Assembly (NCBI GenBank): GCA_964358315.1 | Contig: CAYHOF010000002.1 | Coordinates: 10,738-74,737, forward strand | Direction of reading: 5' to 3' | From: an uncultured Methanosarcinales archaeon | Lineage (GTDB): Archaea; Nanobdellota; Nanobdellia; Woesearchaeales; ARS49 | DNA: 64,000 bases | Part shown: one piece after another, positions 6,255 to 49,068 of the stretch | Layout of the letters: every line of letters begins with the position of its first letter | Position numbering within the stretch: the first letter of the stretch is position 1 | Program-made: the position numbers and the translations under genes | Notes under the pieces: generated by a model | Seen by the model: the letters and a program-made list of their open reading frames with translations, nothing else | The model's database searches: none | Told to the model about the DNA's origin: nothing

Positions 6255-6334
6255 TCACGTACCAGTGATTCTTTTCTGCGCACAAGATTGAAATAGCACC
6301 ACGACAGGCCCGGCCACAGTACGGAGGGAGTGGT

Positions 6335-7132
6335 ATGAGCACAGGTCTTGAAGCGATCGCGGACAAAGAATATATTGGGCGCGTCATCATCATAGGACAA
6401 GTCAACGGTCATGAAGTGATCGCGTACGCGGTCACAGGCCGCAGCGAGAGCAGCAGGGCGCGCGTCCTGAAGGAAGACCGAAATGTCATCCGAACCATGC
6501 CAATCGATAGTGAAACTATCAAAAAAGGCAATCCTACATTATTGCTATACGATTGCATACGCCATTGTGGTACAACATTTATCGTTAGCAACGGTGCGCA
6601 GACAAGTGAGATTACACGTGAAACAGCAGAACACCACATTAATCATACGTACACGATGCCGCGTGCTGTGCTCAATGACGTCTTTAGACGACCCATTATT
6701 CTCAACGGTATCGACGTCACGACGTACGAACCTGACGCACCTAACTTTACGCCGCGAATCAGCGGCATCATCACGCCACAAGGCGCGGGTATGTCCCTGA
6801 TAGAGAAATTTGGCGAAGGCGTCGCACAACATTATTTTGACATTCCTCTTGTTGATGGAAAAGGATTCATGCTGGCAACGTACGCCGGCAAGAACGTGCC
6901 TTCCGGCGAGCGGATCCCCCAACACCAAGGACGACCACTGGATATTGGCATCGCAGGGACGACGCCCCAAGAAGTTGCATGTGCACTTTACAATGCACTC
7001 GGACCCAAAGAAGGCACAGGAATTCTAAGTCCGGGCCAGGACTTCCGCGTCGGCGTCGCTGCTGTGTTCTACAACAGGAAGACGAACACGATGAGCAACC
7101 ACATAATCAACCGCCATGAGGTATCACAATGA
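6335..7132 (+). CDS. purO: IMP cyclohydrolase, archaeal PurO type.
   Basis: The N-terminus resembles PurO (GRVIIIGQVNGHEVIAYAVTGRS). It is the first gene of a purine biosynthesis cluster, and its GC is lower than the neighbouring genes. Confidence 0.55.
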   Translation: MSTGLEAIADKEYIGRVIIIGQVNGHEVIAYAVTGRSESSRARVLKEDRNVIRTMPIDSETIKKGNPTLLLYDCIRHCGTTFIVSNGAQTSEITRETAEHHINHTYTMPRAVLNDVFRRPIILNGIDVTTYEPDAPNFTPRISGIITPQGAGMSLIEKFGEGVAQHYFDIPLVDGKGFMLATYAGKNVPSGERIPQHQGRPLDIGIAGTTPQEVACALYNALGPKEGTGILSPGQDFRVGVAAVFYNRKTNTMSNHIINRHEVSQ

Positions 7133-8574
7133 ACAAGGAACAGGAATACAAGGAACGCATTCACGCATCGCTGGATCAGACGCTCGATTCAGGATTCGTC
7201 CCCGAGCTTGGGGAGTACAAGAAGGGCAAGGTGCGTGACGTCCATTTCTCGGGCGACAAGGTCGTGATGGTTGCGTCCGATCGCGTGAGCTGTTTTGATC
7301 ATGTGCTTTCGCGCCGCATTCCGTTCAAAGGCGCGGTCCTCAATGCGTTCAATGCATGGGCGATGGCGAACACCGCCGACATCATCGAGAACGCGGCTGT
7401 GGCGAGCCCTGACCCGAACGTCGTCGTTCAACGGCGGATGAAGAACGCCGGATTCGAATTCATCGTCCGTGGCTACGTCTGGGGCAGCATAGCTGCCGAT
7501 TATGAAGCGGGTAAGCGCGTGAAGAGCGGCGTCGCACTTCCTGACAACTTGCTGCGCTATCAGCGTTTGGAAACACCCCTTTTCACGCCGACGGACAAGG
7601 CCGAGAAAGGGCACGACGTTGACGTGACGCTCGACGACATCGCTAAAGTCCACGGGCCGGAGATGGCGCAACTCATGAATGGTGTCTCCATCGCACTGTA
7701 CAACCGCGGGGTCAGTATTGCCCAAAGTGCTCGTAAACTGTTGCTGGACACGAAGTTCGAGTTCGGCTTTGACGAGAATGGCGTGCTCTACCTGATTGAT
7801 GAATCTCTCACGCCAGACTCGTCGCGGTATGCTGACGCGCAGGAATACGCACAGAAATGGTCAGTGATAGCGCATGAGATGGACACGGGTGCTTACAAGA
7901 ACGTCAGCGACTTGCTCAAGAAAAAGCCTGAGCTGAAGATCACGGAGGAATCAAAACAATTCGTGCGTGACGTGCTCATCGAGAATGGTTACAAGGATGG
8001 ACAGAAGATCCCTGACCTCACGGACGAACAAGTCGTCGAGACCGCGTGGCGCTACATCAGCTCGTACGAGGCGCTCACGGGCAAGACGTTCGACTTCCAA
8101 CGCACCGACCTGCCCAACGCGAAAGCGCGCATCCTCAACAATCTCAAGAAAGCAGGCATGATCAAGGGAATGTGTGTCGTGCCGATCGTCGCGAGCAACC
8201 GCGGGACGGATCTCGAGTACTGGAGCAAGCTCGAGGAAGCGCTCAAGGAAAACGGCGTTCCATACGTCGCGCCCTTCTTTGGTTCGGCACACAAAGAAAC
8301 AGAAAAGGTCCTTGGCTACGTGGAGAAGATGGACACAAGCCTTGAACCGATCGTGTACATCACGATGGCGGGCCGCAGCAACGGCCTGGGTCCTGTCGTC
8401 GCAGGCAACACCAAGAACCCTGTGATCACGTGTCCTGTCTTCAAGGACGGCGTTGACTACCAAACAAACATCCACTCAAGTTTGCAGATGCCAAGCAAGT
8501 TGCCTATGGCGACGATCATCGATCCAGGCAACGCGGCACTGTACGCGAAGCGCATCATGGACACGCAGAGGTAA
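7129..8574 (+). CDS. purCE: Bifunctional SAICAR synthetase (PurC, long eukaryote-like form) fused to N5-CAIR mutase/AIR carboxylase (PurE), a PAICS-like protein.
   Basis: The N-terminal roughly 330 aa carry SAICAR synthetase motifs (KGKVRDVH, SDRVSCFD). The C-terminal roughly 150 aa carry PurE motifs (VVPIVASNRG, GSAHKE, AGRSNGLGPVVAGNT). The ATG overlaps the purO stop. Confidence 0.75.
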   Translation: MNKEQEYKERIHASLDQTLDSGFVPELGEYKKGKVRDVHFSGDKVVMVASDRVSCFDHVLSRRIPFKGAVLNAFNAWAMANTADIIENAAVASPDPNVVVQRRMKNAGFEFIVRGYVWGSIAADYEAGKRVKSGVALPDNLLRYQRLETPLFTPTDKAEKGHDVDVTLDDIAKVHGPEMAQLMNGVSIALYNRGVSIAQSARKLLLDTKFEFGFDENGVLYLIDESLTPDSSRYADAQEYAQKWSVIAHEMDTGAYKNVSDLLKKKPELKITEESKQFVRDVLIENGYKDGQKIPDLTDEQVVETAWRYISSYEALTGKTFDFQRTDLPNAKARILNNLKKAGMIKGMCVVPIVASNRGTDLEYWSKLEEALKENGVPYVAPFFGSAHKETEKVLGYVEKMDTSLEPIVYITMAGRSNGLGPVVAGNTKNPVITCPVFKDGVDYQTNIHSSLQMPSKLPMATIIDPGNAALYAKRIMDTQR

Positions 8575-8579
8575 CAACA

Positions 8580-10028
8580 ATGGCTGACGATCAAATTGTG
8601 CAGGCGAATCCTAATGTCTTGTCGGAGAGGTATGTGCCGTCTGAAACCAATGAAGTTTTCTCTGAGCGTGGCAAGAACATCGCCGAACGCGAGCTGTGGA
8701 TCGCGGTCATGAAGGGACAAAAAGAACTTGGTGTTCCGATCCCTGGCGAGGATATTGTGAAGTTCGAGAATGCCAAAGACAATGTTGACCTCGCCATGAT
8801 CAAGGAGATCGAACGTAAGACGCGTCACGATATCAAGGCAAAGATCGAAACGTTCGTCAAGACAGCAGGTGCAGGCGAATATTTGCACAAAGCCATGACG
8901 AGCCGGGACCTGACTGATAACGTGGAACAGATGCAGAACTTACGGGCATCAAAGATCATACTAGGTCGTTATGTCGGCGTGGCACGCCACATGATCGACA
9001 AGGTCGAGGAGTACAGAGACATCCTGCTGACCGCGCGCACGCATCACCAAGCAGCCCAACCAACGCTCTTCGGTAGACGGATGGCGATGTGGGCTGATGA
9101 GTTGCTATTCCACATCGGGGAGATGGAACACTTCATCGATGTGTACCCGCTACGCGGCATCAGGGGCCCTGTTGGCACGCAGTTCGACATGCTTTCGCTG
9201 CTCGGCAGCGCTGAAAAAGTAGACCGGCTCGAAATACTCGTCGCAAAACATCTAGGGTTCGCAAAGACGCTTGATGCGACAGGACAAGTGTATCCACGAT
9301 CGCTTGATTATGCACTCGCCGCACGACTGGTCGGTCTCGCGGCGGCGTGCGAAAACTTCGGCATCGGCGTACGCTTGATGTCTGGCTACGAATTGTGTGA
9401 AGAGGGCTTCCAGGAAGGCCAAGTCGGCTCCAGCATCATGCCGCACAAGATGAACACGCGGAGTTCAGAGCGTATTTGCGGCGCAGGCAAGCTTGTCAAA
9501 ATGTACAGTGTCGGCGCGATGTTGCTCTCCGGCGACCAATGGGAGGAAGGCGATGTCTCTTGTTCGATCACGCGACGCGTGGTGCAGCCAGACCAGTTCT
9601 ACGCATCGGAAGCGGTGACCGAGACTACCATGACCGTGCTCAACGAGATGGGCGTCTACCCGGAAATGATCAAGGCAGAATTCAAGAAATACCTGCCGTT
9701 CTTGGCATCGACGGAAATGCTGACGATCGCCACAAAAGCAGGCATCGGTAGGGAGCAGGCGCATAAGATCATCAAACAGCATGCGGTGGGCGAAGCGATT
9801 CGTATGCGCAAGACAGGAGAACTCCCGTATCTTGCAAACCGCCTAGCGCAAGACCCAGTGTTCCAACAACACGGCATCACCGAGAAACAATTGCAGTCTG
9901 TGCTTGATGATACGACGCACTTCATTGGCAATGCGAACAAGCAAATGGACGCGGTGAAGACGAAAGCGCAAGTCTTCATCGACAAGTACAAGGACGCCGC
10001 GGCATACGAGCCACGACCGATCCTCTGA
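8580..10028 (+). CDS. purB: Adenylosuccinate lyase.
   Basis: The 482 aa protein has the fumarate-lyase family signature (MTSRDLTDN, GSSIMPHKMN). Confidence 0.85.
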   Translation: MADDQIVQANPNVLSERYVPSETNEVFSERGKNIAERELWIAVMKGQKELGVPIPGEDIVKFENAKDNVDLAMIKEIERKTRHDIKAKIETFVKTAGAGEYLHKAMTSRDLTDNVEQMQNLRASKIILGRYVGVARHMIDKVEEYRDILLTARTHHQAAQPTLFGRRMAMWADELLFHIGEMEHFIDVYPLRGIRGPVGTQFDMLSLLGSAEKVDRLEILVAKHLGFAKTLDATGQVYPRSLDYALAARLVGLAAACENFGIGVRLMSGYELCEEGFQEGQVGSSIMPHKMNTRSSERICGAGKLVKMYSVGAMLLSGDQWEEGDVSCSITRRVVQPDQFYASEAVTETTMTVLNEMGVYPEMIKAEFKKYLPFLASTEMLTIATKAGIGREQAHKIIKQHAVGEAIRMRKTGELPYLANRLAQDPVFQQHGITEKQLQSVLDDTTHFIGNANKQMDAVKTKAQVFIDKYKDAAAYEPRPIL

Positions 10029-10096
10029 ACCCATCACCTACCAGTGATTTCGTTTTTCGGGCAAGATTTTAATAGACGGAGACAAGGGAGCACATC

Positions 10097-10591
10097 ATGG
10101 CGAAGAAGATCAAGAACACCGCGAAGAAATCCGCAAAGCCAGTCGTCATCAAGGAAGCTGCTGTCGAGAAGAAGGACGCCGTCAAGCATGACGTGAAGCC
10201 ATCGCTCTTCAAGGCAGGCATCGTGGCGTTCGTGGTCATCGCAGTCATCAATTTCGTCGTGAACGGCATCTTGCTCGCACCGGTGTGGAGCGCGATGGAA
10301 GTCGCGGGCGTGGTGCGCGAAGGCCAGGGCGGCCAGATTGCGCTCGCAGGCATCTTCGGCCTCATGCTCGTCATGGGCTTCGTCCTTGCGTGGCTTGTCA
10401 AGCGTGCGCAGCTCAAGGGCGCAGGCGCTGCATTGGGCTTTGGCGTCGTGATCGGCATCTTCATAGCGGTTCCTGACGTCGCAGGATTCCTGTTCTATCG
10501 CGTGCCTGCCATCGTGCCGATCGTGGGGCTTGTGGCCAACATCGTGGGGTTCGCGCTCGCGAGCATGGCTGCCTGGTTCGTCAACAACTAG
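10097..10591 (+). CDS. Membrane protein with a Lys-rich N-terminus followed by 4 TM helices.
   Basis: The hydrophobic segments were read directly from the sequence. No family was recognised. Confidence 0.45.
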   Translation: MAKKIKNTAKKSAKPVVIKEAAVEKKDAVKHDVKPSLFKAGIVAFVVIAVINFVVNGILLAPVWSAMEVAGVVREGQGGQIALAGIFGLMLVMGFVLAWLVKRAQLKGAGAALGFGVVIGIFIAVPDVAGFLFYRVPAIVPIVGLVANIVGFALASMAAWFVNN

Positions 10592-20274: not shown

Positions 20275-21024
20275 ATGGAACAGAGCTTGGAACGAACAGT
20301 ACAACGCGCCCAAGAATCACACGTTGCGCCAGACCAACGCACATTCACAGTAGAACAAGCGATCAGCATCATCAACGAAGCAGAAGCGCTCCAACGTTTC
20401 GATAAGGATGTACAGGATGAGCATCGACTGCATCTTGAGGGCACGCTGGCGACAACGCCGATGTCGCGCGACGATCTCACGACGCTGGCGCAAAAAGCGG
20501 GCGTTGCCGCACACTACACCGATCGCGTGCTTGACAAGCGATATCCATCATTCGAAGAACAGATGAATGATCTTCGTATGCTTGGCTCAAACCTGAACAG
20601 TGATGTTCGCATGAAGACGTATTTAGATGCGGTCCGAACTATGTTCGGACAAGTCCACCAGCAAGCCTTCCCTCAAGGGCAAGAAACGTTAGAGGTAACA
20701 CGTGATTACGGTAATGGACGAGAGTTTTCACGATGCATACAAACAAGTGTCGAACGTGTTATCCGGCCAGGCATGATTGCGCGCTGGTGCGGCGCAAAGC
20801 TAACAAAAGTCAATGAAGTCCACAAGAAGTACATAGAAGCTGCAACAGTAGCAGTGTTTAGTACGCCTAATATGTGCCAAATAACACTACACGACCCTGT
20901 GTTCACCAAGCTCATCGCAGCACCACTTGCCGAACTTAATCGCGATGTGGCGAAATATTTTTCTGCCATCAACGTGACGCATAAATACGTACCCGGTAAC
21001 AGTCTCGAAGGCTTGAAACTCTAG
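20275..21024 (+). CDS. Hypothetical protein (249 aa) with GC lower than its surroundings.
   Basis: ORF with a leaderless-type promoter (TTTATATATG at about 20244-20253). Confidence 0.45.
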   Translation: MEQSLERTVQRAQESHVAPDQRTFTVEQAISIINEAEALQRFDKDVQDEHRLHLEGTLATTPMSRDDLTTLAQKAGVAAHYTDRVLDKRYPSFEEQMNDLRMLGSNLNSDVRMKTYLDAVRTMFGQVHQQAFPQGQETLEVTRDYGNGREFSRCIQTSVERVIRPGMIARWCGAKLTKVNEVHKKYIEAATVAVFSTPNMCQITLHDPVFTKLIAAPLAELNRDVAKYFSAINVTHKYVPGNSLEGLKL

Positions 21025-24953: not shown

Positions 24954-27200
24954 ATGACCACCGTGACGTTCGCGGCTGTGAGGGACATCACGCCGCGGCT
25001 CTATCAGGAGATCATCCTTGCCACGTGTGTCAAGAAGAACACGCTCGTGGTGCTACCCACAGGCATGGGCAAGACCGCGATCGCGCTCCTGCTCGCGCTG
25101 CACCGCATGCAAACACATCCTGGCTCGAAGGTGCTGTTCCTCGCGCCGACAAAGCCGCTCTGTGAGCAGCACATCAGCACGTTCCGCAGGCATCTGGACG
25201 CGCCCGATGACATGTTCTCGCTCTTCACCGGCAGCGTGCCGCCGGCCAAGCGCGCAGCGCAATGGAAAACAGCACAATTCATCTTTTCCACGCCACAAGG
25301 ACTCGAGAACGACATCATGGGCAGCAGCATCAGTCTCGAGGACTGCTCGCTGATCATCTTCGACGAGGCGCATCGTGCGACCGGCGACTACAGCTATGTC
25401 TTTCTCGCGCAACAGTACAACACGCGCGCGAAATTCCCGCACATCCTCGCGTTGACAGCGTCGCCAGGTAGCGAGGTGGAGAAAGTCATGGAGGTGTGCA
25501 CCAACCTCAAGATCGAACAAGTGGAGGTGCGCACGCCCGACGATCCTGACGTGCAGCCCTACGTACAGGAAGTGGACATCCGACCCATCCGCGTGCAGCT
25601 CACGCCAGACATGGAAGCCATACGGAAACTGCTCATCGCGTGCATGCGTTCCAAAGTGGAGGAGTTGCGTAAGGCAGGCCTCACCAAGCTCTCGTTGAAC
25701 CTCTCGAAGCGCGAACTGCTGGGCATGCAAGCAGAATTGCGTGCCAAGATGACGTCAGGCGAGCATGATTATGACACGATGCGCGCGATCTCGGTCGGCG
25801 CGGAAGCGATGAAGGTGCAGCACGCGCTCGAACTGCTCGAATCGCAAGGGCTCTCGCCGCTCATGGAATATTTCGCGAAGCTGCGCGCCGAAGCCGCCGC
25901 CGGACAGAGCAAGGCCGTCAAGAATCTCATGGTCGACGAACACTGGAAGGGCGCGGACATCAAGACGCAACATCTCGCCGACACTGGCGTCGAACACCCT
26001 AAGGTCGAGAAGGTGCAGGAGATCTGCAAGGCCATGGTCGCGGCCAACCCGAAGGCGAAGATCATCGTGTTCACGCAGTACCGCGACACCGCATCCAAAC
26101 TCAAACAAGTGCTTAGTAGCGCGCCAGGCGTGCTTCCCGAAGTGTTCGTCGGCCAGCAAAAAAAGAAAGGCATCGGTTTGTCACAGAAACAGCAGGTCGA
26201 GTTGTTGCAACAGTTCGGCGACGGCCTCTTCAACGTGCTGCTTGCCACGTGCGTCGCCGAAGAAGGCCTTGACATCCCCACCGTCGACTTGGTGCTCTTC
26301 TACGAGCCTGTGCCAAGCGCTATCAGAACAATCCAGCGCCGCGGCCGGACCGGACGACACGAGGCAGGCAAGGTCATGACGCTCATCACGCAAGGCACGC
26401 GCGACGAAGCGTTCGCTGCAAGCGCGAAATACAAGGAACGCAATATGAACGTCATCCTGCAGGACTTGCGCGCCACGCTCAACAAGAAGTTGCTCCAGCA
26501 ACCACAAGCCACGCTCGCGCGCTACGAGAACACGCAACCCCGGATGACCAAGACCGGTCCGAAGATCTACATCGACTACCGTGAGAAAGCCAGCGGCACG
26601 GCCAAAGAGCTGCTTGAGCGCGGCGCACAGATCACGCTCGAGATGCTGCACGTGGGCGACTATATCGTGAGCGAACGATGCGGCATCGAGTTCAAGACGC
26701 AGGACGACTTCCTTGGCAGTATGATCGACGGACGTTTGCTCGAACAGCTCAAGCACCTGCGCAAAGGGTACGAGCGACCGCTCATCATCGTCGAGGGGGA
26801 CAAGGACTTGTACACATTGCGCAACATCCATCCCAACGCCATCCGCGGCATGCTGGCAGCCATCACCGTCACGTACGGCATACCTATGCTGTGGAGCAAG
26901 ACGCCCATCGAGACCGCGCAGCTCATCATGACGATCGCAGAACGCGAACAGAACGAAACGACGAACAGTTTCTCGCCGCACGCGAACCGCAAACCACTTA
27001 CACTTGCACAGCAACAAGAGTACATCGTCAGTGCATTGCCACAAGTGGGCTTGCAACTCGCGCAGGAACTGCTCAAGAAGTTCGGCAGCGTGCAAGCAGT
27101 GCTGAACGCAAGCATCGACGACCTCAAAGCGGTGGAAGGCGTTGGCGACAAGAAAGCGTCGGTGATAATCGATATCGCGAGGAGCAAGTATGGCAATTGA
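24954..27200 (+). CDS. hef: Hef helicase-nuclease (XPF/FANCM family). It has an SF2 helicase domain, an ERCC4 nuclease domain and a C-terminal (HhH)2.
   Basis: Motifs are PTGMGKT, DEAHRATG and QRRGRTGR. The ERCC4 motif is YIDYREK...GDY...ERK...D. A C-terminal HhH pair is also present. Confidence 0.85.
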   Translation: MTTVTFAAVRDITPRLYQEIILATCVKKNTLVVLPTGMGKTAIALLLALHRMQTHPGSKVLFLAPTKPLCEQHISTFRRHLDAPDDMFSLFTGSVPPAKRAAQWKTAQFIFSTPQGLENDIMGSSISLEDCSLIIFDEAHRATGDYSYVFLAQQYNTRAKFPHILALTASPGSEVEKVMEVCTNLKIEQVEVRTPDDPDVQPYVQEVDIRPIRVQLTPDMEAIRKLLIACMRSKVEELRKAGLTKLSLNLSKRELLGMQAELRAKMTSGEHDYDTMRAISVGAEAMKVQHALELLESQGLSPLMEYFAKLRAEAAAGQSKAVKNLMVDEHWKGADIKTQHLADTGVEHPKVEKVQEICKAMVAANPKAKIIVFTQYRDTASKLKQVLSSAPGVLPEVFVGQQKKKGIGLSQKQQVELLQQFGDGLFNVLLATCVAEEGLDIPTVDLVLFYEPVPSAIRTIQRRGRTGRHEAGKVMTLITQGTRDEAFAASAKYKERNMNVILQDLRATLNKKLLQQPQATLARYENTQPRMTKTGPKIYIDYREKASGTAKELLERGAQITLEMLHVGDYIVSERCGIEFKTQDDFLGSMIDGRLLEQLKHLRKGYERPLIIVEGDKDLYTLRNIHPNAIRGMLAAITVTYGIPMLWSKTPIETAQLIMTIAEREQNETTNSFSPHANRKPLTLAQQQEYIVSALPQVGLQLAQELLKKFGSVQAVLNASIDDLKAVEGVGDKKASVIIDIARSKYGN

Positions 27201-27663
27201 TTGGACAGGCACACTGGAAACAGTCAAGACCATTGGAGCACTTCTTGCCTTCGTTGTGCTTTTCTTCCAGTTAAGAGACTACTGGAAAAACCGAGTGGAC
27301 GTGATAATTCTTGTCAAACAACGAACGTTTGAAACTTACAACATGAAGGGATTTGATTCTGAACCGACTACGCGACTCATGATCGAAGCAGACATACGTA
27401 ACATTGGATTACAACCAACAACAATTGCTGAAGTAAAAATGTACTCCAAGGAAAAATCTTTAGACAATAAAAGACTCGATGTCAATGGCCACCAACAAGG
27501 AATTAGATTAGAGCCGAACGACAGAAGAATGGTGACTCTTAGCTATTCTTGGAGTCATGAAATGCCAAACAGTCTAAAGAAAATAGGCGTGAGGCTGCTA
27601 TTCAAAACAACTCACGAAAACAAGAAGAAAACTCTCAAATTAAAAAGAGATATAATATCTTAG
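27190..27663 (+). CDS. Hypothetical protein (157 aa, one N-terminal TM helix) encoded in a sharply low-GC (about 38%) segment.
   Basis: It has AT-rich codons, in contrast to the flanking genes at about 62% GC. It overlaps the hef stop by 11 nt. Confidence 0.5.
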   Translation: MAIDWTGTLETVKTIGALLAFVVLFFQLRDYWKNRVDVIILVKQRTFETYNMKGFDSEPTTRLMIEADIRNIGLQPTTIAEVKMYSKEKSLDNKRLDVNGHQQGIRLEPNDRRMVTLSYSWSHEMPNSLKKIGVRLLFKTTHENKKKTLKLKRDIIS

Positions 27664-28531: not shown

Positions 28532-28885
28532 TTATGCTTTGCGCATCACAAATGTGGAAAGCCCTTCGATGTGCCGCACGGGCGTCGTGAAGAGGAACTC
28601 ACGGAACGTGTTGTCCACGTGCACGCCATGGCGCATGAGGTGCGTGGCGAGTTCGTGGTAGAGCTTGCGGCCTTCCTCGTCGAGGTCGGTGAGCACCATG
28701 CAGTCCTTCGTGAGCGCGGCGACGCGCTCCACCACCTCGAAGAGCGCGCCTTCAAGAGGGATGACGTTCATGATCCCAAGGTCGGCAAGGGAACGCACGT
28801 CCTTCTTGCCTTCGACGATGATGAGTCCTTTGTACTGGCGCAAGCGTTCGAGGTGCGCCTGCAGTTCTTTCTCGTCTACTCTCAT
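28532..28885 (-). CDS. Small Toprim-domain protein (COG1658-like, RNase M5-like fold).
   Basis: The catalytic Toprim residues are present in LIIVEGKKD and VLTDLDEEG. The start is taken at ATG 28885..28883, with a TATA about 25 nt upstream. The longer TTG-start ORF is discounted. Confidence 0.6.
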   Translation of the reverse strand: MRVDEKELQAHLERLRQYKGLIIVEGKKDVRSLADLGIMNVIPLEGALFEVVERVAALTKDCMVLTDLDEEGRKLYHELATHLMRHGVHVDNTFREFLFTTPVRHIEGLSTFVMRKA

Positions 28886-28908
28886 CCACCTGACACCTCC
28901 GCACAAGC

Positions 28909-28916
28909 TATTTAAA
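28909..28916. promoter_or_regulatory. Palindromic TATA element (TATTTAAA) placed to drive both the Toprim gene on the minus strand and the primase gene on the plus strand.
   Basis: It lies 24-31 nt from the minus-strand start at 28885 and 34 nt from the plus-strand ATG at 28950. Confidence 0.45.
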
Positions 28917-28949
28917 GTTACGCGCAACACCATTTCTCGACGGGGGAAT

Positions 28950-30353
28950 ATGGTCATCCACATCAGCACATTGCTCAAGCACTACAAGCGTCCGGAAGTG
29001 CAGCGCGCGCTGGTCGACGCCTCGCAAGACAGGGAAGTGGGCGTGTTCTACGCAGGGAACAACACCTACGGCAAGCGTCCGGACGTGCTCAATTATCCGC
29101 GCGACGTCATGGAGTTCGTGACTAAAGGCGCGACGAGTTTCCACATCAGCGAGGAGCGCTGGAGCAATCCGCTTGGCATCGTGACTGGCGCGTCCCGTCG
29201 GGACCAGGACGACCTGCGCATCGGCTGGGACTTGATCATCGACATCGACTGTCCGTGGCTCGACTACAGCAAGGTCGCTGCGCACGTGATCGCGCAGAAA
29301 TTCCGCAGCATGGGGATCGGTTGTTTCACGATGAAGTTCTCAGGTAACCATGGCTTCCACATCGCAATACCATTCGAGGCGTTTCCTCCGACAGCGACGG
29401 TCGAGGGCAAGGAGCGTGACGTCAAGGACCTCTTCCCCGAGGGACCAAGAAAGATCGCGGCATACCTGCAAGATGAGATCCGCACACCGCTTGGCAGATT
29501 GCTCGTCGAGAAGTTCACGCTCGATGGCATCAAGAACACGACGGGAAAGACGCACGTCGAGCTTGTCAAGCAAGGACCGAAGGGCCCGTACGTCGATCCG
29601 TTCTCGCTGCTCGCCATCGACACTGTGCTCATCGCGTCACGCCATCTCGTGCGCGCGCCCTACAGCATGCACGACAAATCCGGCCTTGTGAGCATCCCGA
29701 TCGACCCGGACACGGTCATCGATTTTGACAAGAAGACGGCCGCGCCGGACGTGATAACGTTCGAGAGGAAATTCCTTGACAGATCGCGCGCGAAACCCAA
29801 TGAAGCACGTCTGATCTTCGACAACGCGTTCGCGCACAAGCTTCCTTCATCACCGTTGCGTGTGCTCAACGAGGACATCGAGAAGGCGATGAAACACCAA
29901 GAGGACACGATACCGACGGAGGCGCTCGCAGAAAGCATGTTCCCGCCCTGTATGCACAACATCAAGAAAGGCCTCAAGGATGGCAAGAAGCGCGCCATGT
30001 TCGCCGCCGTGAATTTTCTCGTGCTCGCAGGCTGGGAGTATGACAAGATCGAGGAATGGCTGCTGCAGTGGAACAAGAACAACCAGGAGGCGTTGCGCGA
30101 GGTGCACATCAAGGGCCACATCCGGTATCACAAGGCGAACAAGAAGAAAATGCCGCCGCCACGCTGCCGGCAGTACTATAAGGACCTCGGCGTGTGCCAA
30201 CCAGACAGCCTCTGTGACCGCATCAAGAACCCGATCCAGTACGCCAAGCGACGGGCGTTCATGGCCAGCATGGACCAGAAGCCGAAAAGGAAGAAGTCCA
30301 CCGACGAGAACGTGAAAGGCGAAGTGGAGATAGGGACGATGAAAGGCGACTAG
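28950..30353 (+). CDS. priS: DNA primase: a catalytic small subunit PriS fused to the Fe-S C-terminal domain of the large subunit (PriL-CTD).
   Basis: The PriS motifs are LIIDIDCPW and FSGNHGFHI. The C-terminal roughly 130 aa have the PriL-CTD signature FPPCM...LAGW...PPPRCRQYY...GVC...SLCDRIKNPIQY. The start is taken at ATG 28950, in frame with ORF 28665. Confidence 0.8.
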   Translation: MVIHISTLLKHYKRPEVQRALVDASQDREVGVFYAGNNTYGKRPDVLNYPRDVMEFVTKGATSFHISEERWSNPLGIVTGASRRDQDDLRIGWDLIIDIDCPWLDYSKVAAHVIAQKFRSMGIGCFTMKFSGNHGFHIAIPFEAFPPTATVEGKERDVKDLFPEGPRKIAAYLQDEIRTPLGRLLVEKFTLDGIKNTTGKTHVELVKQGPKGPYVDPFSLLAIDTVLIASRHLVRAPYSMHDKSGLVSIPIDPDTVIDFDKKTAAPDVITFERKFLDRSRAKPNEARLIFDNAFAHKLPSSPLRVLNEDIEKAMKHQEDTIPTEALAESMFPPCMHNIKKGLKDGKKRAMFAAVNFLVLAGWEYDKIEEWLLQWNKNNQEALREVHIKGHIRYHKANKKKMPPPRCRQYYKDLGVCQPDSLCDRIKNPIQYAKRRAFMASMDQKPKRKKSTDENVKGEVEIGTMKGD

Positions 30354-45375: not shown

Positions 45376-48300
45376 GTGACGAACAGACCATACTCGCCCA
45401 TGACCGACCCTGACCAGCTGGATGACGCGCCCGCCACCGAACAGACCGCAGAGGTGTTGCCCGCGCTCCCGATGGACGCCGCGGACATGATCCGCAAGTT
45501 CAAGGAATTCTTCGAACAATACTATTATGGCGAGCTGCTCGAGGCGTTGCGCAAGGGCGAGCGCCACATGGGCATCGACTTCCAGAAGCTCGTGCGCTTC
45601 GACCCGCAGCTTGGCGACCTCGTGCTCGACCAGCCCCAAGACGCGCTCAAGGCAGGCGAGCTTGCCGTGCGCGAGTTCGACGCGAAGGTCAAGCAGTTCA
45701 CCATTCGTCTGAGCAACCTACCTGGCAGCAGCTTCCTCATGTTGCGTCACGTGCGCAGCAGGCACTTGGGCAAGATCATGTTCACCGAAGGGATTGTGCG
45801 CCAGAAAAGCGACGTGCGACCGCAGGTCACGGAGGCGACGTTCGAGTGCCCGAGCTGCGGCAACCGCCTCAGCGTGCTGCAGCTCGACACCACGTTCAAG
45901 GAGCCCACGCGCTGCAGTTGCGGACGCAAGGGGAAGTTCAAGCTCACCGGCAAAGAGCTCGTGGACGCGCAAGGCATCGTGCTCGAGGAGGCCGCGGAAC
46001 AGCTCGAGGGCGGCGAGCAGCCAAAGCGCATGAACATCTTTCTCAAGAACGACCTCGTGAGCCCGATCACCGAAAAAAGAACGAACCCCGGCTCGAAGAT
46101 CCGCATCACCGGCGTCATCAAGGAAGTGCCGATCACGACCAAGTCCGGCGGGACGAGCACGCGTTTCGACCTGCTCATCGAGGCCAACCACGTGCTGCCG
46201 GTCGAGGAGGACTTCTCCGAGATCACGATCAGCAAGGAGGAGATGCAGAAGATCCTCGACCTCAAGAACGACCCACATATCGAGAAAAAGCTCATCGACA
46301 GCGTGGCGCCCAACATCTACGGCCACGAAAAGATCAAAGAAGCGCTCGTCCTCCAGCTCATGGGCGGCGTGCGCAAGACCCGTGACCAGGGCGCGGGCGC
46401 GACGACAAGAGGCGACATCCACATCCTGCTCATCGGCGACCCTGGTTCGGGCAAGTCGCAGATGCTCAAACGCATCAGCAAAGTGGCGTTGCGCGGCCGT
46501 TTCATCTCGGGCAAAGGCGTCTCGGGCGCGGGATTGACCGCGAGCGTCGTCAAGGACGAATTCCTCTCGGGCTGGAGCCTTGAGGCAGGCGCGCTCGTGC
46601 TCTCCAACAAAGGCATCTGTTGCATCGACGAACTCGACAAGATGACGGACGAAGACCGCGCGGCTATGCATGAGGCACTGGAAGGTCAAAGCTATCATCC
46701 TGACACTGAACTGCTGCTCGCGGATGGCAGTCGGACAACGATTGGAAGTTTTGTCGACGACGTGATGCGACAATGCACTGTCGTACAAGGGACCGATTGT
46801 GAATTCGCGTTCCCAAAAGACACCACGATCCTCACCACTGACTTCCAGCGCGTTGCACCTGCACGCATCGCACGCGTGAGCCGTCATCCGGCGCCCACGA
46901 CATTTTTCCGCATCACGTTCTCGAATGGACGCGCCATCACCGTCACGCCCGAACATCCTCTGTTCGTGTACACGCACGGAGAGGTCAGCGTGACGCCCGC
47001 ATGCATGGCCACGGTCGGCACCATGGTGCCGGCGCCCAGACGACTGCCCATCGAAGGACGGGCGGTCGCACTCACGCAACCCGCCAAACAGTATCATCAT
47101 GCCAAACCGCACGTGTTACCGACGCACCTGAACGCCGACCTTGCACGCTTGCTCGGCTACGTCGTCACTGAAGGTCATTGTTATGCGAACCCGACCAACC
47201 GCACGTACGAGATCGGCGTGAGCAATACTGACACGAGAATAATCAATGAGGTCGCCGCTCTGTTCAGGAACATTTTCGCGACCGACGTCATCGTCACAAC
47301 GCAAGCAGCGGACAAGCGAGAAAAAGCGACGCGCGATTTATACACCGTCAGGTGCTGCTCACGTCCTATCCATGATTTTTTCGCGCTGAATTTCCCGGAA
47401 CTCATGACGAAAGCGCCGCGTAAACGCGCTCCCTCCGGCATCATGCGGGCGACGGAGGATTGTGTCCGTGCGTTCTTGCAGGGAGCCTTCCGTGGAGATG
47501 GCACGGTCAGCAGTGATGACGTGGGGTTTGCGACAGCCTCACGAAAACTGGCGGAAGACTACCAGGACCTGATGCTGCGGCTGGGAACGCCATCCATCAT
47601 CCGCACCGAACACCGCAACGCCGCGACGTACCATAAGACCATCGTCACAGGCACGGTGGCCGAAAAAACGCACTGGGCCGATTCCATCGTCGTTGAGGAT
47701 GATCCGCGACATCATCGCATCCGCGCCCTTCTTCGACGTGCTGCGCAGAAGAACAACCAACGCGATCCGGTTCCTTCCGAGATCGCCGCGCTCACGCATA
47801 AGGCGCTTCTCGCGCTGAAAATGGCGGATGGCAATATCTCGAGCACGCTCGCCCGCGGCCACGCGCCCTCACGTCAGACCATCACGACCTACGTCGACAA
47901 GATAGATGGCCGACTCGATCTGATTGCAAGATCAGAAGGACGCACTGCCCGCAGACTCGCCAACGTGCAGGTCAGCTCGCTTGCGGAGGGAATGGGACGA
48001 TCGAGCGGTCACGTCTATAACGCCGAACTGGACCACCATCAGGAACACGCGACATACACCACCGTGCTCGACCGACAGGTCGCCCGGAAGATCGGCACTG
48101 TCCAAGAATTGATGGCTCCTGTCAAGCGTTTCCTCGATGCGGATCTCAGAGTGCACACCATCACGAATGTCGAGAGGATCGACAACCCGGGGATCGCGTT
48201 GGTCTATGACGTCACGGTAGAGCCGCACCACAGCTTCATCAGTCAAGGGATGGTCTTGCACAACACGGTGACGATCAGCAAGGCCAACATCCAGGCGACG

Positions 48301-49068
48301 TTGCGTTGCGAGACCACCGTGCTCGCTGCCGCGAACCCGAAGCTGGGGCGTTTCGACCCGTATGAGATCATCGCGAAACAGATCGACCTGCCGCCGACGC
48401 TCATCAACCGTTTCGACCTCATCTTCCCGATCAAGGACCTGCCTGACCCTGTCAAGGACAACAACATGGCGAGCTTCATCCTCGAGATGCACCGCACCGA
48501 GGCAGGCATGAACGCGACCATCGACACTCCGCTGTTCCGCAAGTTCGTCGCGTACGCGAAACTCCACATCAGGCCGCACCTGAGCGAGGAGGCGATCGCC
48601 GAACTCAAGGACTACTACATCCGCATGCGCGGCAGCAGCTCGAGGGAGAGCGGCGTCGTCAAGAGCATCCCGATCTCGGCGCGTCAGCTTGAAGGTCTCG
48701 TGCGTCTGAGCGAGGCGCACGCACGCATGCGCCTCTCCGAGATCGTCGAGCGCAAGGACGCGCGCAAGGCCATAGAACTCCTCGATTACTGCCTGCGCCA
48801 GATCGCGCTCGACGAGGAGACCGGACAGATCGACATCGACCGCATCGGTTCGGACACGTCGTCGAGCCAACGCAACAAGATCCTCCAGGTCAAGGAGATC
48901 ATCAAGACGCTCGAGAACAAGGTCGGCAAGGTCATCCCGATCGACGACGTCGAGCAGGAAGCCGCCCAGAAGGGAGTCACGGACGCGGAGCTCGACGAGA
49001 TCATCCAGAAGCTCAAGAAGAGCGGCGACGTCTTCGAGCCAAAGAGCGGCTACATCTCACGGATCTGA
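45376..49068 (+). CDS. mcm: MCM replicative helicase interrupted by an in-frame intein. The extein is about 705 aa.
   Basis: The N-terminal OB/Zn domain has CPSCGN...CSCG. Walker A is GDPGSGKSQ. Walker B is CIDELDKM followed by the intein, and the TVTISKANIQATL motif resumes after it. The start is GTG 45376 or ATG 45400. Confidence 0.9.
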   Translation: MTNRPYSPMTDPDQLDDAPATEQTAEVLPALPMDAADMIRKFKEFFEQYYYGELLEALRKGERHMGIDFQKLVRFDPQLGDLVLDQPQDALKAGELAVREFDAKVKQFTIRLSNLPGSSFLMLRHVRSRHLGKIMFTEGIVRQKSDVRPQVTEATFECPSCGNRLSVLQLDTTFKEPTRCSCGRKGKFKLTGKELVDAQGIVLEEAAEQLEGGEQPKRMNIFLKNDLVSPITEKRTNPGSKIRITGVIKEVPITTKSGGTSTRFDLLIEANHVLPVEEDFSEITISKEEMQKILDLKNDPHIEKKLIDSVAPNIYGHEKIKEALVLQLMGGVRKTRDQGAGATTRGDIHILLIGDPGSGKSQMLKRISKVALRGRFISGKGVSGAGLTASVVKDEFLSGWSLEAGALVLSNKGICCIDELDKMTDEDRAAMHEALEGQSYHPDTELLLADGSRTTIGSFVDDVMRQCTVVQGTDCEFAFPKDTTILTTDFQRVAPARIARVSRHPAPTTFFRITFSNGRAITVTPEHPLFVYTHGEVSVTPACMATVGTMVPAPRRLPIEGRAVALTQPAKQYHHAKPHVLPTHLNADLARLLGYVVTEGHCYANPTNRTYEIGVSNTDTRIINEVAALFRNIFATDVIVTTQAADKREKATRDLYTVRCCSRPIHDFFALNFPELMTKAPRKRAPSGIMRATEDCVRAFLQGAFRGDGTVSSDDVGFATASRKLAEDYQDLMLRLGTPSIIRTEHRNAATYHKTIVTGTVAEKTHWADSIVVEDDPRHHRIRALLRRAAQKNNQRDPVPSEIAALTHKALLALKMADGNISSTLARGHAPSRQTITTYVDKIDGRLDLIARSEGRTARRLANVQVSSLAEGMGRSSGHVYNAELDHHQEHATYTTVLDRQVARKIGTVQELMAPVKRFLDADLRVHTITNVERIDNPGIALVYDVTVEPHHSFISQGMVLHNTVTISKANIQATLRCETTVLAAANPKLGRFDPYEIIAKQIDLPPTLINRFDLIFPIKDLPDPVKDNNMASFILEMHRTEAGMNATIDTPLFRKFVAYAKLHIRPHLSEEAIAELKDYYIRMRGSSSRESGVVKSIPISARQLEGLVRLSEAHARMRLSEIVERKDARKAIELLDYCLRQIALDEETGQIDIDRIGSDTSSSQRNKILQVKEIIKTLENKVGKVIPIDDVEQEAAQKGVTDAELDEIIQKLKKSGDVFEPKSGYISRI
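46690..48264 (+). mobile_element. Intein (525 aa) with a LAGLIDADG homing-endonuclease domain, inserted in the MCM Walker B/sensor-1 region.
   Basis: It begins with Ser after ...HEALEGQ and ends in HN, followed by Thr at +1. Block A is SYHPDTELLLADG, and the LAGLIDADG-like motifs are LLGYVVTEG and FLQGAFRGDG. The flanking extein matches the MCM consensus. Confidence 0.8.

Follow-up and report, generated by a model that had tools for sequence, protein, structure and literature searches.

A predicted late-purine operon with a long-type PurC-PurE fusion in an uncultured woesearchaeal genome

Fusion of PurC, the succinylaminoimidazole carboxamide ribonucleotide (SAICAR) synthetase, to PurE, the aminoimidazole ribonucleotide (AIR) carboxylase, is commonly presented as a eukaryotic feature, found in animals, with the two genes separate in archaea. 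In animal PAICS (human 2H31 and 6YB8; Bombyx 4JA0), a single polypeptide carries PurC at its N terminus and a class II PurE at its C terminus, and substrate channelling by this enzyme is an active question. Here we describe a gene of the same domain order, purCE, which lies between a purO-like gene and purB in a 64,000-nucleotide stretch, hereafter the window, of contig CAYHOF010000002.1 (assembly GCA_964358315.1, Woesearchaeales). In our view, the three genes probably constitute a native operon of a groundwater DPANN archaeon of Woesearchaeota/Nanoarchaeota type and would supply four late activities of de novo purine synthesis, the fusion itself being old, lineage-wide, vertically inherited and independent of PAICS. 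Judged from its sequence, the fusion protein is predicted to work in a PAICS-like manner without being a PAICS orthologue.

The open reading frames (ORFs) of purO, purCE and purB were found at exactly the positions claimed for them in the original prediction, and their Pfam families agreed with the names given (Table 1). The order of PurC and PurE within one ORF was likewise borne out by the location of the two Pfam domains. The genes are tightly packed and operon-like: the stop codon of purO overlaps the start codon of purCE (ATGA), 5 nt separate the purCE stop from the purB start, and each of the three starts is preceded by a Shine-Dalgarno-like GGAGG or GAGGT, with GGAGG located 7 nt 5' of the purO ATG and GAGGT upstream of the purB start.

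The PurC half of the fusion matched PF01259 with 155 bits (cut-off, 20) and scored 273 bits against the equivalog NF009251 (PRK12607), under the cut-off of 371. Its best PDB relatives were the PurC proteins of M. abscessus (3R9R and 6YVQ) and yeast (Ade1, 1A48), at 100 to 120 bits and 25 to 33% identity, and a Foldseek comparison of the modelled structure with these two enzymes gave a target-normalised TM-score (template modelling score) of 0.81. Both are long-type SAICAR synthetases and, unlike the window protein, stand-alone enzymes. These matches agree with the earlier assignment of the PurC half to the long type, and we place it, on sequence and modelled fold, in the long yeast/Mycobacterium-type subfamily. 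When one genome per GTDB species was searched, the nearest stand-alone PurC proteins were those of Bacteroidota, with 37 to 41% identity.

In contrast, PAICS carries a PurC of the short type, whereas that of the window is long (about 340 aa). No significant similarity was detected between the PurC half and the N-terminal domain of PAICS, and phmmer with purCE reached PAICS through the PurE half only. Orthology to PAICS was rejected for the PurC half on the basis of a BLASTP comparison (E = 0.25) with the PAICS-type protein P0246, a bona fide PAICS (496 bits to human PAICS) whose PurC half relates to the short and not to the long subfamily. The simplest and most likely reading is that this fusion and animal PAICS have separate origins, the PurC subfamilies that were fused being different. 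The initial description of the protein as PAICS-like thus stands for the domain order and the PurE half but not for the PurC half. In addition, the modelled orientation of the two domains differs from that seen in PAICS crystals (TM-score, 0.43 to 0.49; root-mean-square deviation [RMSD], 21 A).

The PurE half matched PF00731 with 86.7 bits over profile positions 10 to 129 of 148, and NCBIfam likewise gave a purE-type match in this gene, next to that of purC type. It contains the class II signature loops, S386-A-H-K389 in the 40s loop and A414-GRSNGLGP in the 70s loop, and its motifs SAHK and AGRSNGLGPVVAGNT..PVITCP are nearly identical to those of insect and human PAICS (SAHK and AGRSNGLGPV-GNT-PVI-CP) and of the class II PurE of T. 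denticola. Scores were 64 to 74 bits against class II proteins (64 to 74 for the C-terminal domains of PAICS and 70 for T. denticola PurE) versus 22 to 37 bits against class I PurEs. T. denticola PurE (3RG8) was also the best stand-alone structural match, with 36 to 37% identity and an RMSD of 1.7 A on the modelled structure; it differs from the PurE half in being a separate protein of 159 aa, in having a C-terminal helix and in its P-loop, which is the canonical GSSSD. Loops and scores alike uphold the proposal of a PAICS-like PurE half, which we assign to class II, as in PAICS, from these sequence features.

The chemistry predicted for the fusion protein is, as in PAICS, the conversion of AIR to carboxyaminoimidazole ribonucleotide (CAIR) and then to SAICAR. 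The class II PurE domain would carboxylate AIR directly to CAIR, requiring neither ATP nor PurK, and no ATP-grasp/PurK gene was seen among the ORFs scanned in the 64-kb window. The long-type PurC domain would then ligate aspartate, yielding SAICAR. With both sites on one chain, the labile CAIR could plausibly pass between them, a hand-over that has been proposed for animal PAICS. PurB would convert SAICAR to aminoimidazole carboxamide ribonucleotide (AICAR) and also adenylosuccinate to AMP, while PurO would close the ring of formyl-AICAR (FAICAR) to give inosine monophosphate (IMP); the AICAR formyltransferase step would be encoded elsewhere in the genome or be missing. The family offers a small prokaryotic protein, predicted to combine class II AIR carboxylase and SAICAR synthetase, with which channelling could be compared. 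The prevailing view is that DPANN archaea rely on hosts for their nucleotides, and late-purine operons of this kind bear on their autonomy.

In a scan of one genome per GTDB species, the fusion was present in about 35 species, mostly Woesearchaeota, Nanoarchaeia, Aenigmatarchaeota and Nanohaloarchaea, as well as in a few metagenome-assembled genomes (MAGs) labelled Patescibacteria, Chlamydiae or Bacteroidota. The expectation that such a fusion is unusual for archaea holds for cultured archaea, in which Brown et al. 2011 reported none while calling fused PurCE common in eukaryotes (PMC3261824), but it does not hold for DPANN, where the fusion is widespread. We found no prior description of an archaeal or DPANN PurC-PurE fusion in the open-access literature, although an earlier one is possible; a DPANN genomics paper makes no mention of it. 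Across a large group of uncultured archaea the fused architecture is standard, which corrects the textbook picture. One member of the family comes from Ca. Tiddalikarchaeum (Micrarchaeota), an organism reported to lack de novo purine enzymes (PMC8561730). It nonetheless encodes a PurC-PurE fusion (P0122), with a PurE half 56% identical to that of the window, and isolated late-pathway purine genes may be common in DPANN.

The window protein belongs to a set of uncharacterised PurC-PurE and PurN-PurC-PurE fusions from DPANN, Patescibacteria, Diplonema and others, with which it shares architecture and linker and, for the other members of the fusion family, 45 to 66% identity. An exhaustive search with the PurE half retrieved 593 representatives, including many two-domain fusions, PurN-PurC-PurE triples of 600 to 690 aa and stand-alone class II PurEs. 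Two sub-clades could be distinguished. The sub-clade of the window carries AGRSNGLGP, which is PAICS-like, and lacks the C-terminal helix. The larger sub-clade B (P0040 to P0102, P0110 from Diplonema and the EukProt sequences P0095 and P0097; alignment A1) has AGGTDALSG in the 70s loop, which is neither a class I nor a class II signature, and has kept the C-terminal extension. Sub-clade B is 55% identical to the window in the PurC half and only 32% in the PurE half, and the two halves therefore have incongruent histories. The protist copies, from Diplonema and EukProt transcriptomes, nest among DPANN and Patescibacteria copies in sub-clade B.

On a wider scenario we are tentative, rating it at a little under an even chance: the fusion would have evolved at least twice, once with a short PurC in animals and once with a long PurC in DPANN, Patescibacteria and protists, each joined to a class II PurE, with convergent selection for the hand-over of CAIR, a helix-less assembly and, in this genome, a cassette delimited by recombination and bounded by the 42-nt repeat. 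If this were true, the woesearchaeal sub-clade lacking the C-terminal helix might assemble differently from the PAICS octamer. Other fusions were met among the relatives. PurN (Formyl_trans_N)-PurC-PurE triples, common among relatives of the PurE half (P0126, P0129, P0138, P0152 and P0073; 600 to 711 aa), place non-consecutive pathway steps on one chain. A Nanoarchaeota MAG (L031, 7080-10145) encodes a 1021-aa fusion of PurC to a PurK-like ATP-grasp region, followed in the next ORF by a class I PurE (AAGGSAHLPG), and a similar PurC-PurK-like fusion occurs in a Chlamydiae MAG (L033, 1385-3079).

Trees and synteny favour vertical inheritance of purCE within the lineage, the gene being probably inherited rather than recently imported. 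Separate phylogenies of the two halves, the check put forward together with the suggestion of horizontal acquisition, spoke against that suggestion for purCE: neighbour joining on the PurC half recovered all copies associated with the fusion as a single clade (100/100), with the window as sister to Woesearchaeota locus L002 (96/100), and in the tree of the PurE half the window fell together with the rest of its sub-clade and a copy from Micrarchaeota, apart from the PAICS-type proteins. In three relatives (L006, L036 and L037), purC(E) is immediately preceded by RNase J-PCNA, and in two others (L009 and L012) purCE is closely followed by five genes of the window, those at 12.0 to 15.4 kb and that for Hef at 25 kb. 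The identity of purCE to its counterpart in each of three relatives compares with that of neighbouring housekeeping genes as 50 versus 48 to 59%, 49 versus 44 to 67% and 66 versus 57%. Nesting within Woesearchaeota, synteny on two sides and normal codon usage taken together, recent horizontal acquisition is therefore not supported for purCE; the original prediction, which concerned the whole block, may still apply to purO and purB. The fusion would thus be old in DPANN and would here have been passed down vertically at a conserved pur locus, which purO and purB join variably.

We found the GC dip claimed for the block to be real but overstated, with 51 to 56% against 57.5 to 60% in the flanks instead of 48 to 53% against more than 60%. 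The block as a whole has 54.1% GC (purO, 51.1%; purCE, 55.8%; purB, 54.0%), the flanking ABC ATPase, permease and DUF1761 genes have 57.5, 59.2 and 60.0%, and the window mean is 58.5%. The signal is located at third codon positions and is uneven across the three genes. A coding model self-trained on the window yielded 61 genes with a median GC at third positions (GC3) of 0.81 (standard deviation, 0.057); GC3 was 0.73 in purCE, 0.54 in purO, which fails this model, and 0.66 in purB, which is the minimum among the 61 modelled genes. An index resembling the codon adaptation index, computed against the mean codon usage of the window, gave z values of -2.9 for purO, -1.7 for purB and -0.8 for purCE, the last lying within one standard deviation of the window genes and hence in the normal range. 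A chimeric origin of purCE visible as a GC3 step at the domain junction was also considered and rejected, there being no step across it. The fusion-bearing relatives (L001 to L037 and L081 to L085) all have 30 to 52% GC, with the GC of purCE following each host locus, and the window genome (58.5% GC; gene GC3 of about 0.8) is therefore a GC-rich outlier of the group. The low GC3 of purO and purB could mean that they were recruited later from relatives of lower GC or that codon selection on them is weaker. For annotation, this is an ordinary metabolic operon, and GC alone is no ground for flagging a recent foreign island.

Both borders of the block carry a copy of a 42-nt module (Table 1). It was found by Smith-Waterman comparison of all intergenic pairs and was missed by a gap-free repeat finder because the copies differ by indels. 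Its first half, a TCAC-N6-GTGA palindrome plus a T-run, is restricted to these two sites, and TACCAGTGATT occurs only there in the 64 kb. In the upstream copy, palindrome and T-run are followed by the promoter-like CAAGATTGAAATAG. The second half, CAAGATTnnAATAG, is found in further intergenic regions as well (7 matches, with 1.8 expected) and looks like a BRE/TATA-type promoter. The repeat was absent from the loci of relatives, copies being carried only by contig L086, which is from the same genome. It could serve two adjacent transcription units as a common module, either terminator-plus-promoter or operator, or it could be a recombination footprint.

Three other explanations of the locus have to be set against that of a native operon with a working fusion. 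A frameshift or misassembly near position 8100 might have joined separate purC and purE genes, a possibility raised from the start, and unfused states do exist in the family: purC and purE overlap in different frames in L034 (1069-2560), either a real split or a frameshift, and a stand-alone long PurC occupies the syntenic RNase J-PCNA site in L036 (7962-9080) and L037 (4798-5946), no PurE being found in the retrieved loci of these two. However, contig L086, assembled independently from another sample (Hainich groundwater), is 100% identical across the block, with the same gene order, and encodes the same 481 aa; the identical protein is also recorded on a 100.9-kb contig, and a partial NCBI protein labelled Nanoarchaeota archaeon is identical through the fusion junction. 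The two-domain architecture is common to more than 120 full-length homologues, more than 150 homologues having the same continuous architecture and the conserved linker helix (residues 331 to 341, conserved family-wide), and the AlphaFold model of the monomer is confident throughout, linker included (predicted local distance difference test, 90.5; predicted TM-score, 0.84). The identical protein in L086 and the conservation of the linker exclude the frameshift, and a fusion artefact is effectively refuted. The points that do weigh against our preferred reading begin with the PurE half. Its P-loop reads ASNRGTD where GS[ST]SD is canonical, so that Gly and the second Ser are replaced and an insertion is present, and it differs even from the GAS-x-KD of its own clade. 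All solved PurEs, including the full domain of about 159 aa in PAICS, have about 30 C-terminal residues that the PurE half lacks, the alignments ending at about residue 128 of 159 in T. denticola PurE and 393 of 425 in PAICS. AIR carboxylase activity or the usual octamer could differ as a result of these changes. Were the domain catalytically degenerate, the protein would serve only as a SAICAR synthetase, its C-terminal domain having a structural or regulatory role, or that domain would act on another substrate, as might also be suspected from the related fusion of Ca. Tiddalikarchaeum, given its reported lack of de novo purine synthesis. We regard this as quite unlikely, since the catalytic 40s and 70s loops are intact and almost identical to those of PAICS, since the first Ser (S356) and the Asp (D361) of the P-loop are invariant in the family, and since the truncation is common to the whole sub-clade and so does not reflect decay in this genome. 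Moreover, members of the sub-clade are 60% identical to the window in the PurC half and 60% in the PurE half, and this equal conservation argues that the PurE domain is functional.

Further points on the same side are that purO stays under the NCBIfam cut-offs (TIGR01922, 61.7 versus 158; NF003167, 59.7 versus 150), that the ORFs scanned in the window include no further purine genes, with neither AICAR formyltransferase nor early pur genes in the 64 kb, and that the trees are neighbour-joining trees on short alignments in which many sequences have no taxonomic label. Insertion or recombination would fit both the codon usage, strongly atypical in purO and moderately so in purB, and the 42-nt module, whose copies (34/43 identical) form a direct repeat at the exact borders of the block and are the top-scoring of 406 intergenic pairs. 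In the remaining explanation, all of purO-purCE-purB is a cassette that was acquired horizontally from a lower-GC donor and came to lie between the ABC transporter and DUF1761 genes. In its favour are the low GC3 of purO and purB and the bracketing repeat. Only 4% of windows of equal size are as GC-poor as the 3,694-bp block, the donor would have been of lower GC since all known fusion-bearing relatives are, and the partners of purCE vary among relatives. On the other hand, purCE has the codon usage of its surroundings, nests within Woesearchaeota and keeps its synteny with relatives on both sides, and the wide differences in GC3 among the three genes are unexpected for a single acquisition. 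Nor was a recent donor found, the best non-self identities being 66% for purCE, 55% for purO and 65% for purB. The tRNAs nearest to the block, at 1976 and 14226, do not adjoin it, the Pfam-scanned neighbours include neither an integrase nor a transposase, and the second half of the repeat is the promoter-like motif that recurs elsewhere. Acquisition of the block as a whole is thus unlikely, and we retain the native operon with an inherited purCE as the preferred reading.

Table 1. Positions in the window of the purO-purCE-purB genes, the two halves of purCE and the bracketing repeat
Feature	Coordinates	Strand	Description
purO-like	6335-7132	+	265 aa; Pfam IMP_cyclohyd
purCE (PurC-PurE fusion)	7129-8574	+	481 aa; SAICAR_synt at aa 31-242, then AIRC at aa 360-479
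PurC half of purCE	7129-8154	+	aa 1-342; predicted long-type SAICAR synthetase, C-terminal end formed by the conserved linker helix at aa 331-341
PurE half of purCE	8155-8574	+	aa 343-481; class II AIR carboxylase-type domain
purB	8580-10028	+	482 aa; Pfam Lyase_1 and ADSL_C
42-nt module, upstream copy	6255-6296	+	directly after the ABC permease stop codon
42-nt module, downstream copy	10034-10075	+	5 nt beyond the purB stop codon and before the DUF1761-like gene

The two genes that accompany purCE are compositionally atypical and are variable partners at the purCE locus, not constant in relatives, and their recruitment may be later than that of purCE; their lower GC3 would stem from such later recruitment or from weaker codon selection. 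The purO product matched PF07826 with 109 bits (cut-off, 28) and belongs to the same Pfam family as the archaeal PurO of M. thermautotrophicus (2NTK), to which it is similar in its N-terminal part. It differs in length (265 versus about 200 aa), and only its first 95 or so residues align with 2NTK by phmmer; most active-site residues of PurO are in the N-terminal region (PMC6486802). Its relatives are DPANN proteins of 240 to 290 aa with at most 55% identity, and purO appears to encode a divergent, DPANN-specific long form of IMP cyclohydrolase. The purB product scored 342.4 bits against TIGR00928, above the curated cut-off of 326.2, and is of a subtype of about 475 aa, being 59 to 65% identical, about equally, to archaeal (DPANN) copies and to bacterial copies from several phyla. 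In relatives, purCE is found next to RFC genes, next to guaB-purA and a gene for AICAR formyltransferase only, or next to an apparent PurQ-PurD fusion and purM. The second arrangement is seen in L084 (11541-12703), where the cluster order is guaB-purA-purCE-AICARFT-purB and the AICAR formyltransferase-only gene (AICARFT) was called as two ORFs (274 and 104 aa), possibly through a split or a frameshift. In the syntenic Woesearchaeota locus L009 (5917-10632), purCE lies between purM and a 693-aa protein that looks by eye like a fusion of a PurQ-like glutamine amidotransferase to PurD, an indication that the de novo pathway is more complete in some DPANN.

The block is surrounded by ABC transporter, DUF1761, NTP-transferase and nitroreductase genes, the DUF1761-like gene (10097-10591) lying downstream of purB. 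The window as a whole is core archaeal chromosome, with genes for Cdc6/Orc1, PolD, an intein-containing MCM, a fused primase, Hef, PCNA, a ribosomal protein cluster and SecY. Two ORFs that lack a Pfam match (27190-27663 and 20275-21024) are compositionally more aberrant than the pur genes, one having 38.8% GC and lying directly 3' of the Hef gene and the other having a GC3 of 0.49, and are possible recent insertions. The MCM gene (45376-49068) carries an intein with a LAGLIDADG domain, and the primase ORF (28665-30353) unites small- and large-subunit domains in a single protein.

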